From Bradyrhizobium sp. (GTDB lineage: Bacteria; Pseudomonadota; Alphaproteobacteria; Rhizobiales; Xanthobacteraceae): 64,000 bases of DNA. Below the pieces are notes generated by a model. It did not search any database, was not told where the DNA came from, and saw only the letters and a list, made by a program, of their open reading frames with translations. Below, piece by piece: positions 7,943 through 47,909 of the stretch. Positions within the stretch are counted from its first letter, which is position 1; each line of letters starts with the position of its first letter. A program made the translations under genes and the position numbers. Where the stretch lies: contig DASQOU010000328.1 in the NCBI GenBank assembly GCA_035644295.1, forward strand, positions 5,300-69,299, in the 5' to 3' direction.

Positions 7943-9175
7943 TTAGTTTCCTGGCCGATGCAGCTGTGGACGATGCCGGGTAAAGGACGCGCGGCCGCGC
8001 TTGATGCCCCACAGCGGTTGCGCCAACGTCGCGATCGCGTCCGTGGGGTTGCTTGCATCCAGACACACCAGGTCGGCCGGTCCTCCGACGGCGATGCCGT
8101 AATCGTCCAGCCGCATCAGCCGTGCCGCGGAGCCGGTGATCATGTCGAGGCATCCGGCGAGATCGGCCGGGCGCGACACGTGGCAGACATTCGCATAAAG
8201 GTTTGCCATCCGGATCAATGAGCCGTCGCCATACGGCGTGAACGGGTTCAGGACATTGTTGGTCGAGATCGAGCAGGTCACGCCCGCCTTGCGCAGAGGC
8301 TCTGCCGGCACGACACCGCGCGGCACCGCATGGTCGTGACTGCGGCCCATCAAGTGGAGATCGGTCGACGGCAATATCGTTACGGCGACGCCGGCATTGG
8401 CGAGCCGCGCCGCGATTTCGTTGAAGCGCTCCGGTGGCAGCAGCGACATCTGGGTGACATGGCCGACGGCCACCCGGCCGCCCCAGCCGAATTCCTCGGT
8501 CTTGCGGCAGACATATTCGACCTGCATGCCCTGCGTGGTCTCGGCGAGATCAAGGTGCATATCGATTTCGGCATCGAAATCGCGGGCGATGGCAAAAATT
8601 CGATCGATCTGGGCGCGGGGGTCGGTGTCGAAATACGGCGCCGCACCGATCGCCCGCGCACCGCGGCGCAGGCCCTCGATCAACAACTCTTCCGTGCCGG
8701 GGTAGTTGGTGAGTCCCTCCTGCGGGAATACGCATAGTTCGACATCGATCGCCCAGGCATAGTCACGTGCGAGCTGCTCGACCGCCTCAAAGCCGATCAT
8801 TCCTATTCCCGGATCAAGCTCGACATGGGTGCGCATCCGCATGGTGCCCTGCGTGATGCAGCGTTCCAGCGTCTGCCTGCCGCGCCCATAAACGTCCTCG
8901 ACGGTGAAGCCGCGCTTCGCGGCGGCGGTTTGCCGCACAGCCTCGGCGACGGTGCCCTCTTCGATGCGGCAGCGGTCGAGAATGCAGGTCTTGTCGAGAT
9001 GGATGTGCGTCTCGATCATGCCTGGGACGACGAGGCAGCCCGTGGCTTTCAGTTCGGGTCCATCGGCCTGAAGCGCCGAAGCGATCGCCGCGATCGTTTG
9101 GTCTTGAATGGCGATATCGGCGCTGACGAGCTCGCCCTCGCGCAGAATGCGAGCGTCACGAATGATCAGGTCCAT
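7943..9175 (-). CDS. Cytosine/creatinine deaminase-like amidohydrolase with non-canonical active site
   Basis: HIHLDK, FPQEG, HLD, VAVGH, NPFTPYG motifs. Confidence 0.88.
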   Translation of the reverse strand: MDLIIRDARILREGELVSADIAIQDQTIAAIASALQADGPELKATGCLVVPGMIETHIHLDKTCILDRCRIEEGTVAEAVRQTAAAKRGFTVEDVYGRGRQTLERCITQGTMRMRTHVELDPGIGMIGFEAVEQLARDYAWAIDVELCVFPQEGLTNYPGTEELLIEGLRRGARAIGAAPYFDTDPRAQIDRIFAIARDFDAEIDMHLDLAETTQGMQVEYVCRKTEEFGWGGRVAVGHVTQMSLLPPERFNEIAARLANAGVAVTILPSTDLHLMGRSHDHAVPRGVVPAEPLRKAGVTCSISTNNVLNPFTPYGDGSLIRMANLYANVCHVSRPADLAGCLDMITGSAARLMRLDDYGIAVGGPADLVCLDASNPTDAIATLAQPLWGIKRGRASFTRHRPQLHRPGN

Positions 9176-13779: not shown

Positions 13780-13796
13780 AAGCAAACGGTATGCCA
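13780..13796 (-). promoter_or_regulatory. sigma54 (-24/-12) promoter
   Basis: TGGCATACCGTTTGCTT, about 115 bp upstream of the SBP gene. Confidence 0.75.
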
Positions 13797-13961
13797 CAAC
13801 CGCAGAAATCACAACGGCACGCTGGATTGTGATTGAATATCTGCCCGTTGAGCGGCGTCGCATCCGGCAAGCCCTTTGGCGTCAGCTCTTGTCCGGCCGC
13901 CCGAAGCTCTTCGTAGCGCCGCCGATTGGCCTCGAAAATCTCCTGCCTGGTCCGTGGGTCG

Positions 13962-14582
13962 TCATGCCGCCGCACCGAGTTTGGAGATCGAGAAATGCGC
14001 CTCGACCGGTTTTCCCGCCTTGCCATTGATAGGCAGGATGTCCTGCGGACAGGCGGAGAATGCAATCACCAGATCCATCTCGGCGCGCAGGCGAACGTAG
14101 CCTCCGGGCACCGGCCGCGGCGGCGCGGCGAAGCCAAGCGTGCCATCGGGATCCCACGGAATATTCATGAACAAGTTAAGCGGGCTTGGTACCTCCGGCG
14201 GCACAAGCCCCAACTCTTTCATCCCGACAAAAAGATTATCCGTGCAATTGTCGTGATAGTCCTGCACCCCGAGAAAGGCGTAGCGGTAGCGATCGCAGGC
14301 TGCGATCAGGGTATCGTGAATTCCGCCAGACGTGTCTTCGGTCAAGGTCAGGATCGGCCGGCGTTTGTTCGTGCGTAGAACATCGCCGGGCCTGGGAACA
14401 AGGTGCAGGCTGTGCGCGCGCGTATGCTCATTCGACATAAACTCGCCCAGGTCGGCACGGTTGAATGCCCAGGTATCGACGACCTGCTCGCCATGGGTAT
14501 TGACGACGGTGATCACTTGGCCAGCCGCAACAAAGGCAGCCTTGCCACGCCTTGCAGGAATTTCGATGAGCGGATCACCCAT
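13962..14582 (-). CDS. DUF1989 urea carboxylase-associated family protein (CgdA/B-related)
   Basis: IPARRG, GEQVVDTWAFN, HDTLIAAC, HDNCTDNL, PLNLFMNIP, FSACPQD. Confidence 0.92.
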   Translation of the reverse strand: MGDPLIEIPARRGKAAFVAAGQVITVVNTHGEQVVDTWAFNRADLGEFMSNEHTRAHSLHLVPRPGDVLRTNKRRPILTLTEDTSGGIHDTLIAACDRYRYAFLGVQDYHDNCTDNLFVGMKELGLVPPEVPSPLNLFMNIPWDPDGTLGFAAPPRPVPGGYVRLRAEMDLVIAFSACPQDILPINGKAGKPVEAHFSISKLGAAA

Positions 14583-14591
14583 GCCAGCGCC

Positions 14592-14984
14592 TCAGGGCCT
14601 TATGGCAATCATGTCGATCTCAATGATACCGCCGCGGGCGAGCCCCGTGACACCGACGGTGGTTCGGGCAGGACGCTTGTCGGCGGCGAAATAGGTCGCG
14701 TAGATCTCGTTCATCTTCGCGTAGTCGGCGTTGAAGTCGGTCAGGAAAATGCGCACGCAAGCCACGTTGGCAAGCGAAAGCCCACAACCCCCGAGCACGC
14801 GGATCAGATTGTCCATCACCTTGTGCGTCTGGGCCTCGATGCCGGGCGGGATCGCTAAGGAATCGTCACCCGGATCGGTCGCAAGTTGCCCCGTCACGAA
14901 AACAAATCCTCCGGCCTCGACCGCATGGCTGTATGGCGCGACCGGCTTCGGCGCATCGGGCAAAAGGTGAAAGATCGGGTGCAT
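14592..14984 (-). CDS. RidA/YjgF family protein
   Basis: PVAPYSHAV, VFVTGQL, PARTTVGV, IEID. Confidence 0.93.
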   Translation of the reverse strand: MHPIFHLLPDAPKPVAPYSHAVEAGGFVFVTGQLATDPGDDSLAIPPGIEAQTHKVMDNLIRVLGGCGLSLANVACVRIFLTDFNADYAKMNEIYATYFAADKRPARTTVGVTGLARGGIIEIDMIAIRP

Positions 14985-15011
14985 GGCGGGATTCCTCCTG
15001 GCAGGTTATTG

Positions 15012-15797
15012 TCAGCGTCTGCTGCTGGCGACGTCACCGGCGTAGCGCTGAAGAAACTGGCGCGCGCGGTCGGTCTCGGGATTTGAGAAAAATTTATCCG
15101 GCGACCCGGTTTCGACGGCTCGCCCGCGATCAAGAAACAGCACCCGCGTTGCCGCATCCCGCGCGAAAGCCATTTCGTGAGTGACGATCACCATCGTCAT
15201 TCCTTCGCGAGCGAGATCCCGCATCACGACCAGCACCTCTCCGACAAGTTCCGGATCGAGCGCGCTGGTCGGCTCGTCGAACAGCAGAAGGTCCGGCCGC
15301 ATCGCCAATGCGCGTGCGATGCCGACACGCTGCTTCTGTCCGCCCGACAGTTTCGCCGGAAATGCGTCGCGCTTGTCGCTGAGTCCCACTTTCGAGAGCA
15401 GCGCCACCGCCTCATCGAGAACCTCGGCCTTCGGCCGCTTCTGCACCTGGACCGGCGCTTCCATGAGGTTTTGCAGCACCGTGAGGTGAGGCCACAGCGC
15501 AAAGTGCTGGAATACCATGCCAATGCGCGTTCTGATCTTCGACAGATCGCGATCGCCCATGACGATGCCGGCGTTGTTGATGCCGACTCGCTCCCCATTC
15601 AAATAGATTTGTCCTGCGTCCGGCCGCTCGAGCCAGTTGATGCAGCGTAGCAAGGTCGATTTGCCCGAGCCCGACGGCCCGAGCACGCAGATGGTCTCGC
15701 CCTTGTCGACGCGGAAGCTGACGTCGGAGAGGACTTCTACATTGCCAAACCGTTTCGAGACCCCGGCTACATCGAGAACCTTGTTGGAATCGGCCAC
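15012..15797 (-). CDS. Polar amino acid ABC transporter ATPase
   Basis: GPSGSGKS, LSGGQKQR, FDEPTSALDPE. Confidence 0.95.
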   Translation of the reverse strand: MADSNKVLDVAGVSKRFGNVEVLSDVSFRVDKGETICVLGPSGSGKSTLLRCINWLERPDAGQIYLNGERVGINNAGIVMGDRDLSKIRTRIGMVFQHFALWPHLTVLQNLMEAPVQVQKRPKAEVLDEAVALLSKVGLSDKRDAFPAKLSGGQKQRVGIARALAMRPDLLLFDEPTSALDPELVGEVLVVMRDLAREGMTMVIVTHEMAFARDAATRVLFLDRGRAVETGSPDKFFSNPETDRARQFLQRYAGDVASSRR

Positions 15798-15807
15798 CGG
15801 CGCCCTC

Positions 15808-16464
15808 CTATCGACGCGCTTCGGCGACGCGGCCGATCGAACTCACCCCAGCCTCGATGATGAGGCAGAGTCCCCAGTACAAAAACACCGCGGTGATGAA
15901 GGCCGCGAACGGTACGTAGTGCCGCGACTGGATCGAGCTCGCGGCATGCGTGAGTTCCGGCAGCGCGATGATGCTAAGGAAGGCGCTGTCCTTGATGATC
16001 TGGATCATCTGATTGCCGATCACGGGACCCGCCGACAACAGCAGCGGCGGAAGAATGATGCGGCGAAACAGCCGGATTTCAGAGAAGCCGAACGCGACCC
16101 CCGCCTCGATCGGCTCCCGCGGCTGCACCACCCATGCACCTCGCAGGATCTCAGCCATGTAAGCAGCATTGTAAATCGTCAGCGCCGCCAGCCCCGAGGT
16201 CCAGTTGTCCAGCCTGACGCCGAATGACGGAAAGCCATAATAGACGATATAGGCAAACAGCAGAAACGGCACGCATCGCATGCCGTCGACGAACAGGCGT
16301 GCCAGCCCGGACACAGCCGGCCGTTTCGACATCAGCGCCGGAGTGACCATAAAGCCCAACAGCAGCGCGGCGACGGCGGACAGCGTCGACAGGATCGCCG
16401 TATTGGCAAGCCCGCTCAGAAGCAGCGAATGTTCGCTCCAGACGATGCCGAAGTCGCGGATCAT
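15808..16464 (-). CDS. Polar amino acid ABC permease
   Basis: AYMAEILRG / EAG..FG EAA loop; KDSA motif. Confidence 0.92.
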   Translation of the reverse strand: MIRDFGIVWSEHSLLLSGLANTAILSTLSAVAALLLGFMVTPALMSKRPAVSGLARLFVDGMRCVPFLLFAYIVYYGFPSFGVRLDNWTSGLAALTIYNAAYMAEILRGAWVVQPREPIEAGVAFGFSEIRLFRRIILPPLLLSAGPVIGNQMIQIIKDSAFLSIIALPELTHAASSIQSRHYVPFAAFITAVFLYWGLCLIIEAGVSSIGRVAEARR

Positions 16465-17108
16465 GCCGCGGCCTCGGCTGCGAACTGACGGCGTTCGATC
16501 CAGCGCTGCAGTGAAACGAGCGCAAAGACGATCGGTACGTATAGCGCCACCGCCACCAGAAAGGGCGGCAGAGGTTCGTAGGTCTGCGCGCCAATTCTTA
16601 CCGCCGCGCGGGTGATATCGACGACCCCCACCACCGCAAGCACCGGCGTGACCTTGATGAGCAGCGACATTTCATTGACGAGGCCGGGAAGGCTTACCCG
16701 CACGATCTGCGGCAAAACGATCCTGCGAAAGCGCTGTTCGGCGCGCATGCCAACGGACTGCGCTGCCTCGTATTGATCCCTCGGAAAATTCATCAGCGCC
16801 GCCCGCCAAACCTCGCAGTTGAAGGCCGAGGTGTTCATGACCAGAGCAAGGATCGCCGCCGATATCGGATTGATCGGCACGCCGATATTCGGAAGAGCGA
16901 AGAACAGCAGCAATAGAAGGGTAACCAGGGGAGTTGCGCGCAAAATGCTGACGTAGAGCGTTACGATCCTCGCTGCGACCGGAACATCGGCCCAGCGCAG
17001 CAACGCGAGGCCGAGGCCGATCGGCAACCCGATCAGGATGCCGACGAATGACAGCGATACTGTCACGACGGCCCCCTGAAAGATGGCTGCGATGTCGCTG
17101 CCGTTCAT
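16461..17108 (-). CDS. Polar amino acid ABC permease
   Basis: RATPL, QYEAAQSVG EAA motif. Confidence 0.92.
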   Translation of the reverse strand: MNGSDIAAIFQGAVVTVSLSFVGILIGLPIGLGLALLRWADVPVAARIVTLYVSILRATPLVTLLLLLFFALPNIGVPINPISAAILALVMNTSAFNCEVWRAALMNFPRDQYEAAQSVGMRAEQRFRRIVLPQIVRVSLPGLVNEMSLLIKVTPVLAVVGVVDITRAAVRIGAQTYEPLPPFLVAVALYVPIVFALVSLQRWIERRQFAAEAAA

Positions 17109-17133
17109 GTCGGACGTTCTGCCAGGTCAGCCC

Positions 17134-17988
17134 TTAAAATTCCGGCTCAAACGCGACCGGCAGGTCGGGGAATGCCTGGCCAAACCACTTCTTCTGAAGC
17201 TCGGCGAACCTGCCGCTGGCTTTTTCCTTGGCGAGAAATTCGTTCAGGAAGGCGAGCAGTTCCTTGTTGTCCTTGGCGACGGCCCACGCCGGGAAGGACT
17301 TTCCTGAAACCGCCTGGCCGATCTCGAATATCGGCTTTTCAGCCACCAGCGTCTGCAGATTGATGATGGTGTTGACCACGTAATCTACCCGGCCCAGGGC
17401 CAGGTCCTGGTAGGCTTCAGGATAGGAGGTGTATTCGACCACCTTTCCGAGCTTGCCGCCGGTCTTCTCCAGCATCGTGCCAAGTTCGGGAAGACGCCCA
17501 AGCAGCGCGCTGCCGGCTTGAACGCCGACGGTCTTCCCATTCAGATCCTTGATCGAGGAAATGGATTTGTCGTCTTTCCGCTTCACATAGTAATGCGTCG
17601 CGTCAGCGATCGGGCTCGTAAAATCAAGCGATTTCTTGCGTTCCTTGGTGATGATCACGGCCGTAATGGCGACATCATACTTGCCGGTGCTGACGCCAGC
17701 CAGGATGCCGGTCCAGGGTAGGATTTCCTGCTTGATCTCGAATGGCGCGGACTTGCGCAGATCTTCAATCAGCTCGTTGTCGAAGCCGGTCGGCTTGCCA
17801 TCTTTCACGAACTCGAAGGGGCGGAAATCGTCCTCCGTCGCCGCGATGAGACCACGCTTCTTGATCTCCTCCATGCTCGCAGCTTTCGCATCGCCGATCA
17901 CCATCGGCATGGCGAACAGCGCGGCCATCGAGCCGAGCATCAGGCGGCGCGTCAAGGAATTGGGATAGGCGATTGAGCATGTTTTCAT
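17134..17988 (-). CDS. Polar amino acid (family 3) substrate-binding protein
   Basis: LTRR signal; PFEF..DGKPTGFD; ITKERKKSLDFT. Confidence 0.93.
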   Translation of the reverse strand: MKTCSIAYPNSLTRRLMLGSMAALFAMPMVIGDAKAASMEEIKKRGLIAATEDDFRPFEFVKDGKPTGFDNELIEDLRKSAPFEIKQEILPWTGILAGVSTGKYDVAITAVIITKERKKSLDFTSPIADATHYYVKRKDDKSISSIKDLNGKTVGVQAGSALLGRLPELGTMLEKTGGKLGKVVEYTSYPEAYQDLALGRVDYVVNTIINLQTLVAEKPIFEIGQAVSGKSFPAWAVAKDNKELLAFLNEFLAKEKASGRFAELQKKWFGQAFPDLPVAFEPEF

Positions 17989-18068: not shown

Positions 18069-18902
18069 TCAGTCGAAGCTGAAACCGTGTGAACGCAGAT
18101 AAGGCGGAAACGCCGCGCCCTCCGCCTTGGCGGCCTGTCGCGCCTTGTCTTCCGACCAGCCGTAAAAGGTCGCCTCGCCAAATTCCGCGTTGGACCGTTG
18201 CTGCTCGCGCGGAATAGCGTGCAGGGAATCCCGCCGGCGGTCGTAATCATCGATGGCGCCAGCAAGCTCGCTGTCATCGTAGCGGTCGCGGTGGGTCGTG
18301 ACGCGGCGCGGCAGGCGCAGGCTGACGTAACCCTCCCCTTGCGGATAGCCGAGGCAAAGTCCTGCGACCGGAAAAACCAGATCGGGCAAACCGAGAATCG
18401 CGGCAACCTTGTCGATCTCGTTGCGAATGACGGAGATGGGACAGACGCCGAGCCCGACGGATTCAGCGCACAGGATCATGGTCTGCATCGCAAGCGCAGC
18501 ATCCACGCTGGCGTTGAAGAAACCCTCCAGCGTTCCGTTCTTGACCGGTTTTCCACGCAATTCGCCGATGCGCTGCAGTCGTCTGGCATCGCCAAGAAAT
18601 ACGAAAAATGCCGGCGATAGTCCGATCCATGGCATGCTTGGGAAGAGCTTGCCGATCTCAGCACGCTGCGCGGGGTCGCTGACCCGCAGGATGGATGCCT
18701 GCTGGAAATCCGACTTGGCCGAAGTGCTCAAGGCCGCGGCGACAAGCAGATCAAGCAAGCTATCGCTGGGGATGACATCGCTGTAGCGGCGAACGGTTTT
18801 TCGGGAGAGAACGCGATTGATGAACTCATTCTCGGCGACTCCTTCGCCAGATGGACCGCCGTCGCCGAAGCGGCGTTCGATCGCGTCCGCGCCGGCCGAC
18901 AT
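18069..18902 (-). CDS. Nitroreductase / NADPH-flavin oxidoreductase (NfsA-like)
   Basis: RKTVRRY FMN motif, AESVGLGVCPIS.IRN, GLCLGYP, RLP. Confidence 0.9.
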   Translation of the reverse strand: MSAGADAIERRFGDGGPSGEGVAENEFINRVLSRKTVRRYSDVIPSDSLLDLLVAAALSTSAKSDFQQASILRVSDPAQRAEIGKLFPSMPWIGLSPAFFVFLGDARRLQRIGELRGKPVKNGTLEGFFNASVDAALAMQTMILCAESVGLGVCPISVIRNEIDKVAAILGLPDLVFPVAGLCLGYPQGEGYVSLRLPRRVTTHRDRYDDSELAGAIDDYDRRRDSLHAIPREQQRSNAEFGEATFYGWSEDKARQAAKAEGAAFPPYLRSHGFSFD

Positions 18903-19028
18903 CAGTTCGAATCCCGATCGGCCACGCGGTGCAGGCGGGCAGCCGCTGGCCAGTCTTCGACAAACATGGCCGGTTCTGGAAAAGTTGAGACGTCCATCGC
19001 CAACTCCACTGAAAGGTTCACGAACCCT

Positions 19029-19061
19029 GGAATTGGCATGGACCTGAGAGATGCCAATTCC
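19029..19061 (-). promoter_or_regulatory. 11-bp hairpin, likely riboswitch expression platform
   Basis: GGAATTGGCAT-N11-ATGCCAATTCC starting 13 nt after the aptamer; no U-tract. Confidence 0.6.
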
Positions 19062-19074
19062 TGGCCACTGAGGT

Positions 19075-19173
19075 CTCCGGGGATTTTATCCCGCCGTGCC
19101 CTGAGCAGATTTCTCCTGCGCAGGCGGCAGCCCTTGGACCAGCCATCGAATCCGATGCGGAACCCCAGCCACC
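19075..19173 (-). ncRNA. ykkC-yxkD (guanidine-I-like) riboswitch aptamer, variant
   Basis: Minus strand: GGTGGCTGGGGTTCCGC-ATCGGATTCGAT-GGCTGGTCCAAGGGCTGCC-GCCTGCGCAGgagaaatCTGCTCAGGGC-ACGGCGGGATAAAATCCCCGGAG. It matches the recalled consensus blocks UAGGGUUCCG / CUGGUCCGAGAG / ACACGGNGGGANAAAAGCCCGGGAG in order and spacing. Confidence 0.85.
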
Positions 19174-19192
19174 ACTCAATGCCAAGACGTGG

Positions 19193-19208
19193 AGCAAGGG
19201 ACATGCCA
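19193..19208 (-). promoter_or_regulatory. sigma54 promoter driving the riboswitch-nitroreductase operon
   Basis: TGGCATGTCCCTTGCT; predicted +1 near 19182, just before the aptamer. Confidence 0.8.
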
Positions 19209-19468
19209 GACGCGATGACCGACGCACCAGATGGCCCTGTCCGGACCCTCCTGGCTGCTGCTCAATCGCAATCGCTTGGCGCAGTGCCTAGGGATTGCGG
19301 GAGAAAATCCCTCCCCGCACCGCAACCAGCAGTCGCAAAATGCGAAGAGTGCTTCGTATTGCGGGGCGAGCCCGCGGTCTGCGCCCGCGTCGGTTTTCCG
19401 GCCTTGCCGCTTTTGAGGCACGGTGCACAGATTGTAAGCGCAGGATCGATGCCCCGCGGACCGCGCCT

Positions 19469-47448: not shown

Positions 47449-47710
47449 TTTCGAATCTCCTTGTGCTGATAGCCCCGAACGGTGAACACGGTAGGTGAGG
47501 GATTCGCGATTTCGATTTGGTCGAATCGGGTGATGCTGTCGCCTTTGGTCCGGAATGCGATGCGGCCTGGCTGGGATAGGGTTTTTTCAAAGCCGGTAAA
47601 TACCCACGTCCCGTCGCGCGCGGCGGCAATCGTTGCCGACGGCCCGATGCGCGGCGCACCGATCAGGCGCGCAGGCTTCTCGCTGGAAATGGGTATGATT
47701 GCCGACAGGA
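47445..47710 (-). pseudogene. Chimeric remnant: ChrB-like N-terminus joined to the C-terminus of another protein
   Basis: (L)SAIIPISSEKPARLIGAP resembles a ChrB start; FEKTLSQPGRIAFRTKGDSITRFDQIEI resembles the G..G.WTKADS.T.FD end of a beta-sandwich protein. Confidence 0.5.
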
Positions 47711-47909
47711 CGCGTCCATCCAGGATTTCGGGACGCGATTCTTCGGCTGTCGCCTCATGGGGAGATCGCAATCCCCACATCGAATAAACTAACCGGCCGA
47801 GGTAGGCTGTCAAGCATAGGGCCGTCGCTATCGGGCGCCATTAGACAACAACGCCCCAATTGCCGTTCCAGAGCAGATCACACATGCGTTACTCGGGTCT
47901 GTTCCCTCG

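Follow-up and report, generated by a model that had tools for sequence, protein, structure and literature searches.

The subtype 2 RNAs of the ykkC scaffold respond to ppGpp (2a), PRPP (2b) and nucleoside diphosphates (2c), and subtype 2d is an orphan. Guanidine-I riboswitches (ykkC subtype 1; RF00442) are represented by the structures of the D. dadantii, S. acidophilus and Burkholderia sp. TJI49 RNAs, and in the usual descriptions they act through a terminator and precede genes for SMR exporters or guanidine carboxylase. In the D. dadantii structure, G67 serves as the stacking floor of the ligand, which is also contacted by the phosphate of G68 and by the Hoogsteen edge of G85 (PMC5340920). 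The subtype 2 RNAs differ from guanidine-I at the pocket itself, where the equivalents of A38 and G67 are pyrimidines and the conserved G84 and G85 have been lost (PMC5340920, PMC8457001). Two further classes, guanidine-II and guanidine-III, are translational switches in which the ribosome-binding site is released in a ligand-dependent manner.

The window, by which is meant the whole 64,000-nucleotide stretch of Bradyrhizobium sp. DNA that was analyzed, contains an element that shares with guanidine-I the three-helix fold, the loop L1, the A-rich P3 loop and the ligand contacts, and by analogy it should act as an ON switch whose P3 3′ tail is shared with the expression platform. It differs from guanidine-I in carrying G8, A35, G38, U79 and C83, of which only G8, G38 and C83 are lineage-private; in a predicted translational control, by an anti-Shine-Dalgarno (anti-SD) hairpin and a coupled upstream ORF (uORF), in place of the terminator; and in the genes controlled, which begin with an NfsA-like nitroreductase followed by an ABC importer, RidA and DUF1989, and not with an SMR exporter or a guanidine carboxylase. 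With guanidine-II and guanidine-III it would share the ligand-dependent release of the ribosome-binding site, whereas their aptamer folds are unrelated, and in the window the Shine-Dalgarno (SD) sequence would be controlled through an intermediate anti-anti-SD/anti-SD hairpin. The best explanation of the locus, to which we assign a probability of roughly 60%, is a guanidine-I riboswitch, not a new subtype, which is transcribed from a sigma-54 start, operates as a three-strand translational switch and in the window allele is still guanidine-responsive. The features of the locus are collected in Table 1.

Table 1. Features of the riboswitch locus, with positions in the window; nucleotide numbers in the aptamer follow D. 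dadantii.
Feature	Position	Strand	Basis or distribution
Conserved palindrome, consensus AATGCGAAG-N4-CTTCGCATT	19341..19360	(-)	Alignment of 9 orthologous upstream regions
Sigma-54 promoter TGGCAT-N5-TTGCT (GG-N10-GC)	19193..19208	(-)	Exact consensus match
Guanidine-I (ykkC subtype 1) aptamer: P1/L1, P2, P3 with A-rich loop	19073..19179	(-)	RF00442, full length
A8G (UAGGG>UGGGG)	19166	(-)	A in 27/27 orthologues and in the sister lineage; private to the window lineage
G35A, partner of A8	19135	(-)	A in 20/27 orthologues, G in 7/27
A38G, pocket wall	19132	(-)	A in 27/27 orthologues; private within the orthologue group
G79U	19083	(-)	U in 27/27 orthologues
G83C	19079	(-)	G in 27/27 orthologues; position 83 deleted in the sister lineage; private
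Ligand contacts	G37 19133; G67 19095; G68 19094; G85 19077	(-)	Alignment and PMC5340920
Long-range pairs	C64-G84 19098/19078; C66-G87 19096/19075	(-)	Alignment and PMC5340920
Linker GACCU, first base aptamer G87	19071..19075	(-)	Complementary to loop AGGUC 19041-19045; RNAalifold consensus
Hairpin, 11 bp (19061-19051 with 19039-19029), 11-nt loop	19029..19061	(-)	Conserved in orthologues
Hairpin arms: 5′ arm GGAAUUGGCAU (anti-anti-SD), 3′ arm AUGCCAAUUCC (anti-SD)	19029..19061	(-)	Complementarity
Shine-Dalgarno region GGAGUUGGCG and uORF AUG	18995..19007	(-)	Nearly invariant in orthologues
uORF, 31 codons; stop overlaps nitroreductase start (UGAUG, 18904-18900)	18902..18997	(-)	Position conserved, peptide not
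NfsA/NfrA-type NADPH nitro/flavin reductase, first operon enzyme (predicted)	18069..18902	(-)	Pfam PF00881; NCBIfam NF008033 below cut-off
Remaining operon: polar-amino-acid-type ABC importer (binding protein, two permeases, ATPase), RidA, DUF1989a	13962..17988	(-)	
Junction of 1,364-bp lineage-specific deletion	13849..13850	(-)	blastn against sister locus L181 (L181:6600-7963)
Second perfect sigma-54 box TGGCATACCGTTTGCT	13781-13796	(-)	Conserved in L167

Identity of the aptamer and its ligand-contacting nucleotides

A cmscan search identified an RF00442 (Guanidine-I) match at 19073-19179 (-), with 67.8 bits (E 6.8e-10) over model positions 1-107; the gathering score of the family is 63 bits, so that the margin is a narrow 4.8 bits. 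None of the other Rfam families competed for the aptamer stretch, and a similarity to RAGATH-16 (19.8 bits, E 0.3) was taken as chance. The sequence-only reading had described a full ykkC-type aptamer with P1, P2 and P3 and had named a covariance-model search with RF00442 as a check; the description is borne out by the full length of the match, and the check by its significance. All of the aptamer helices pair in the RF00442 alignment, with two mismatched pairs flagged, both in P2, and the four adenines of the A-rich P3 loop are present, as is the conserved L1 loop (CUAGGGUUCC / GGUCCGAGAG), from which the window departs at positions 8, 35 and 38. The orthologous aptamers score 69–83 bits against RF00442, the window allele having the lowest score in the group, and the same genome contains two canonical guanidine-I copies besides the window aptamer, at 86–87 bits. 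On the evidence of the covariance model and the alignment, the element is a genuine guanidine-I (ykkC subtype 1) riboswitch. Elsewhere in the window, Rfam also reports a chrB-a RNA match at 47706-47781 (-), with 78.1 bits against a cut-off of 43.9.

The structural roles of individual nucleotides were taken from the D. dadantii RNA (PMC5340920) and mapped through the cmscan alignment. The nucleotides that contact guanidinium are all kept in the window, namely G37, G67, the phosphate of G68, the pair C64-G84, G85, A86 and the pair C66-G87. The deviations listed in the sequence-only reading (UAGGG>UGGGG, CCGAGAG>CCAAGGG and AAAAGCCCGGGAG>AAAAUCCCCGGAG) are all present in the window alignment; the proposal built on them, that an altered pocket marks a new subtype, is not supported by the alignment, in which G84, G85 and G87 are intact and the two changes on the 3′ side hit G79 and G83. 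The underlying premise, that the altered guanosines of the 3′ tail form the guanidinium pocket, fails at the same place, since the guanosines that changed are not those of the pocket. G79 is described as a “floppy” flipped-out loop nucleotide, C69-G83 as a weak and less conserved pair, and A8 as normally engaged in a Hoogsteen/sugar-edge pair with G35 within L1 (PMC5340920); A8G swaps out the Hoogsteen-edge partner of this non-canonical pair.

The window RNA also lacks the marks of subtype 2. Position 38 (A55 in Burkholderia), where every subtype 2 RNA has a pyrimidine, is G in the window, a purine although not A, and G38, G67, G84 and G85 are all present. A copy that resembles subtype 2d was found in the same genome (G000:C352:17871-17980; L004:1501-1610, -), with 52.8 bits, below the Guanidine-I cut-off; its position 38 is C (GAGCG), its CACGG block is altered, and the gene immediately after it encodes an EamA (former DUF6) transporter, features that fit the orphan ykkC subtype 2d.

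Distribution of the deviating nucleotides

The source genome is a metagenome-assembled genome (MAG) of 400 contigs that is 72.8% complete, and in an assembly so fragmented the deviant bases might be assembly or sequencing errors. The probability of this is negligible. The 226-nt leader is 100% identical in three further assemblies (ENA ERZ27253149, ENA ERZ27253148 and JGI 3300012929), and the JGI contig Ga0137408_1373641 is identical over the overlapping part of the leader. Logan contigs from two studies likewise carry the leader, the likely source run at a word depth of 14–18 and a run from a different study with the exact 100-nt stretch spanning A8G and A38G. Assembly error is ruled out by these independent assemblies and contigs.

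Twenty-seven orthologous leaders were collected from 400 genomes of the same genus. The 20 of 27 orthologues with A at position 35 show that this position is variable. Whether the G>U and G>C changes of the tail are conserved in homologous leaders, a check named in the sequence-only reading, received a divided answer, as G79U occurs in 27/27 leaders whereas G83C occurs in 0/27 and is lineage-private. That reading had also counted substitutions unique to this genome against a new subtype, and A8G, A38G and G83C were found in 0/27 orthologues and in 0/3 sister-lineage contigs. The sister lineage (L181-L183), whose nitroreductase is 97% identical, has A8, G35 and A38, lacks position 83 and has kept the complete operon; it bears private aptamer changes of its own at otherwise invariant columns (CUGG>AUGG before GGUCC, and the loss of G83). 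The window leader has a fourth private change, the loss of one U just 5′ of P1, which brings its private changes at columns otherwise invariant in the 27 orthologues to four, compared with 0–2 in each of its close relatives. The small clade of the window and sister lineages as a whole shows, in this alignment, unusual turnover in the aptamer core. Sorted by their distribution, G35A and G79U are family traits at tolerant positions and G38 is a common natural variation, the remainder being lineage-private.

The occurrence of G38 in other species was surveyed with a guanidine-I core pattern requiring a non-A base (B) at position 38, in one genome per species for 185,579 species. G occupies position 38 in at least 122 of at least 124 matches listed (at least 119 loci) and far outnumbers C and T among the non-A variants; the exact CCAAGGG, which combines G35A with A38G, is found in many of the G38 matches listed. 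Paenibacillus and Cohnella are the main sources of these matches, the others including gamma- and alphaproteobacterial MAGs, Binatia and one cyanobacterium. The first gene 3′ of the G38 aptamers listed encodes an SMR exporter in at least 63 cases, an NMT1-type binding protein in at least 18 and an arginase-family protein in at least 9, the others including one guanidine/urea carboxylase. Judged from these neighbours, the G38-associated genes are the classical guanidine regulon, and CCAAGGG is, on the same comparison, ordinary natural variation in guanidine-I aptamers. Within Paenibacillus and Cohnella, G38 (GGUCC[G/A]AGGG; L027-L145) seems to be clade-typical and stands mostly before SMR exporters; no mention of this state was found in the literature consulted.

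A8G is almost unique in nature: the G8 pattern was recovered from 241 million metagenome records only in the window lineage and in one unrelated G8/C38 variant. The latter is a rare ykkC variant (GGCUGGGGUUCC ... GGUCCGAGCG; L041, L180:1832-1909) that retains guanidine-I-like CACGG and GGGAG and is known from one Pseudomonadota MAG and one metagenome contig. Because the G38 and position-83 changes are tolerated elsewhere in nature, the window allele has most likely remained responsive to guanidine, its affinity being unchanged or weaker. It is probably fully functional, and possibly it responds to hydroxyguanidine as well.

An improbable alternative is that a single soil lineage re-tuned its guanidine-I aptamer within a short time (dS about 0.08), through A8G, A38G and G83C, which would have arisen alongside the loss of two of the DUF1989 genes, the pocket-proximal changes altering affinity or selectivity toward a guanidine derivative as the pathway was remodelled. 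Of the five changes that the window lineage has derived, three are located in L1 or the P3 base, adjoining the binding site, while the other parts of the aptamer and the platform remain conserved; A8/A35 lie two layers above the G37-G38 bulge, G38 forms the pocket wall and C83 is stacked on the G68-G85 layer. A few pocket mutations change the ligand in ykkC-fold RNAs (PMC6031431, PMC8457001), for which subtype 2, whose overall scaffold the window RNA shares, is the precedent, and a guanidine-I riboswitch responds to hydroxyguanidine in vivo (PMC10018355). Re-tuning is nevertheless without comparative support, as the changes are confined to one lineage; none of the nucleotides in direct contact with the ligand has changed; G38 by itself accompanies ordinary guanidine genes; and the argument from clustering is post hoc and concerns three sites. 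If re-tuning were true, the switch would respond over another range of affinity or to a derivative of guanidine, for example hydroxyguanidine, and the locus would offer a natural snapshot of a riboswitch specificity change in progress.

Transcription start and expression platform

The sigma-54 site that the sequence-only reading had placed ahead of the aptamer is an exact match and one of the two perfect TGGCAY-N5-TTGCW boxes in the 64 kb window; it is invariant in 28/28 orthologous leaders. The genome encodes rpoN, and no sigma-70-like site was found near the promoter or in the leader. With GC at -12, the predicted transcription start falls near 19182 and precedes P1 by about 9 nt. Sigma-54-type boxes also precede the CUAGGG motif of many other guanidine-I aptamers at a fixed distance of 31–41 nt, in loci from Alphaproteobacteria, Gammaproteobacteria and Binatia (L001, L013-L021, L037, L052, L059, L086, L092, L093, L105, L106, L137, L141 and L142), other loci of the genus among them; L001 is a canonical guanidine-I copy of the same genome, with its box at the same fixed distance. 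In several of these loci, transcription is predicted to begin exactly with P1, at its first base. By this survey, the arrangement is common among proteobacterial guanidine-I switches; no mention of the combination was found in the literature searched.

Transcription from a sigma-54 promoter requires an enhancer-binding activator, and an AND gate of activator signal and ligand is the natural and a well supported reading of the arrangement. The sequence-only reading had specified the gate as nitrogen starvation plus ligand. Its two-input part agrees with the invariant box, whereas nitrogen starvation was an assumption, no NtrC consensus having been seen upstream of the window promoter. The spacing from the -24/-12 box to P1 and the two-input logic are shared with the tandems of other Proteobacteria, from which the window differs in controlling a nitroreductase operon and in possessing a conserved palindrome about 150 nt upstream, with no NtrC-type site recognised. 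This palindrome, about 140–150 nt upstream of the -24 element, may be bound by the sigma-54 activator or by the neighbouring MarR protein, a conserved MarR gene lying directly upstream. More conserved upstream blocks occur near 19400-19425 and 19285-19310. The second perfect box of the window precedes genes for a Peripla_BP_6/Liv-type ABC transporter and an amidohydrolase at 7943-9175, and a CGAAG..CTTCG palindrome upstream of it, located inside the DUF1989b coding remnant, is probably coincidental.

Downstream of the aptamer, the hairpin pairs in 95% of cells across 20 orthologues and contains three pairs with compensatory changes on both sides. The sequence-only reading had claimed that the hairpin loop can alternatively pair with the tail of the aptamer, and this pairing proved to be conserved, with GACCU:AGGUC paired in 97% of cells across 20 orthologues and zero compensatory changes. 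The SD region (18995-19007) can pair with the anti-SD arm (19029-19038) in 98.5% of cells, and the structure made of both helices is 98% paired overall and nearly invariant; no covariation was detected for these OFF helices (anti-SD:SD and linker:loop) in the 20 orthologues. In its minimum-free-energy state, the window RNA has the SD paired with the anti-SD. When the aptamer tail was blocked, minimum-free-energy folding gave no consistent ON/OFF separation across orthologues, and the direction of the switch therefore rests on analogy. No intrinsic terminator was found on the leader RNA strand. A further helix may form between GAGAC of the tail and GUCUC just after the AUG: a YCUC motif recurs at variable distance, but the helix was not chosen by RNAalifold.

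The 100-aa ORF that covers the leader (18902-19204) had been dismissed as spurious, which is correct over the aptamer, whereas its last 31 codons are a positionally conserved uORF with its own SD and ATG. The uORFs of the orthologues have 10–32 codons, and the UGAUG overlap is present in the window and in four of the five orthologues translated, the uORF of L007 stopping earlier. A pseudogene or frameshift of the nitroreductase as the source of the 31-codon ORF was rejected, a short uORF with conserved position being present in orthologues too; the nitroreductase gene calls of 313–314 aa in some assemblies represent the nitroreductase frame extended upstream to a non-ATG (L) start, not the uORF frame. 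At L009 (G055:C17), the hairpin, SD and uORF after the aptamer are replaced by unrelated DNA, and the locus appears rearranged or truncated.

From these complementarities, the expression platform appears to be a three-strand translational switch. In the OFF state, the 3′ arm of the hairpin would pair with the SD region at the uORF ribosome-binding site, while the 5′ arm and the loop would be held by the linker GACCU..GCC, which begins with G87. Bound ligand would lock G84-G87 into the base of P3, and this capture would weaken the linker helix, allow the hairpin to form and free the SD. In the resulting ON state, the two hairpin arms would be paired with each other and the SD region accessible; the uORF would be translated and, by coupling at UGAUG, so would the NfsA-like nitroreductase, with the importer, RidA and DUF1989 downstream. 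That the ligand favours the ON conformer is inferred by analogy with known guanidine-I switches.

The operon, its deletion and its bearing on guanidine biology

The first regulated gene encodes a nitroreductase, as the sequence-only reading had stated, on the basis of the PF00881 match and of NfrA/NfsA/Frp as the best PDB relatives. The accompanying remark that a nitroreductase is not a usual guanidine-I target also stands, as no paper linking guanidine riboswitches to nitroreductases was found in the literature searched. The gene order of the operon is conserved in all orthologous loci fetched. A possible association with guanidine export, uptake or degradation lies in the DUF1989 genes (the CgdAB family), but the first gene is a nitroreductase and the importer is of the polar-amino-acid type. 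In the orthologous operons, three DUF1989 paralogues follow one another (L181, L184 and L185); the window lineage has lost most of DUF1989b and almost the whole of DUF1989c to the 1,364-bp deletion, and a separate ENA assembly of the lineage shows the same layout from DUF1989a to the binding protein.

The genes that remain are under purifying selection. The nitroreductase has a dN/dS of 0.06–0.12 against 17 orthologues, and against the sister lineage the nine remaining operon genes have values of 0.04–0.14, with 0.12 for the nitroreductase, by which operon-wide decay is excluded. On the long terminal branch (dS 0.29–0.39), the aptamer has acquired five unique changes where about 30–40 would be expected under neutrality, and by this count it is clearly constrained over the long term. 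Compared with the sister lineage (mean dS about 0.17), 8/107 aptamer positions differ, which is about 0.45 of the synonymous rate, and 1/75 platform positions, about 0.08 of dS; these counts are small and suggest, as a hint, a recently relaxed or shifted constraint on the aptamer core in the clade.

The same figures can be read as a recent impairment of the aptamer in the window lineage, in which sensing went unselected after or with the loss of DUF1989b and DUF1989c and the core is drifting while the platform and the genes are maintained. We regard this as unlikely, though less so than re-tuning. It draws on the excess of private changes at invariant columns, on the aptamer diverging so much faster than the platform, on the deletion of two operon genes in the same lineage, on the lowest Rfam score of the orthologue group and on the approximately 10-fold weaker guanidine binding that A38G causes in the D. 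dadantii RNA (PMC5340920). Set against these points, the ligand-contacting nucleotides, the helices and the A-rich loop are all intact, the G38 and position-83 changes occur in evidently functional relatives, and the counts are small. A switch locked OFF should moreover relax selection on the nitroreductase, yet its dN/dS is 0.12.

A new ykkC subtype would have been notable; the evidence is that of an ordinary guanidine-I riboswitch, and the main value of the result is a correction. The alleles of the window and sister lineages (G8, G38, C83 and the deletion of position 83) constitute a natural mutant series for the tolerance of the pocket surroundings. For the family, the wide occurrence of G38 at classical guanidine genes means that position 38, used as a discriminator, should sort ykkC subtypes by purine versus pyrimidine. 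For the genus, a conserved guanidine-controlled operon in soil bacteria, composed of an NfsA-like nitroreductase, a polar-amino-acid-type importer, RidA and three DUF1989 paralogues, points to an undescribed pathway for guanidino compounds.
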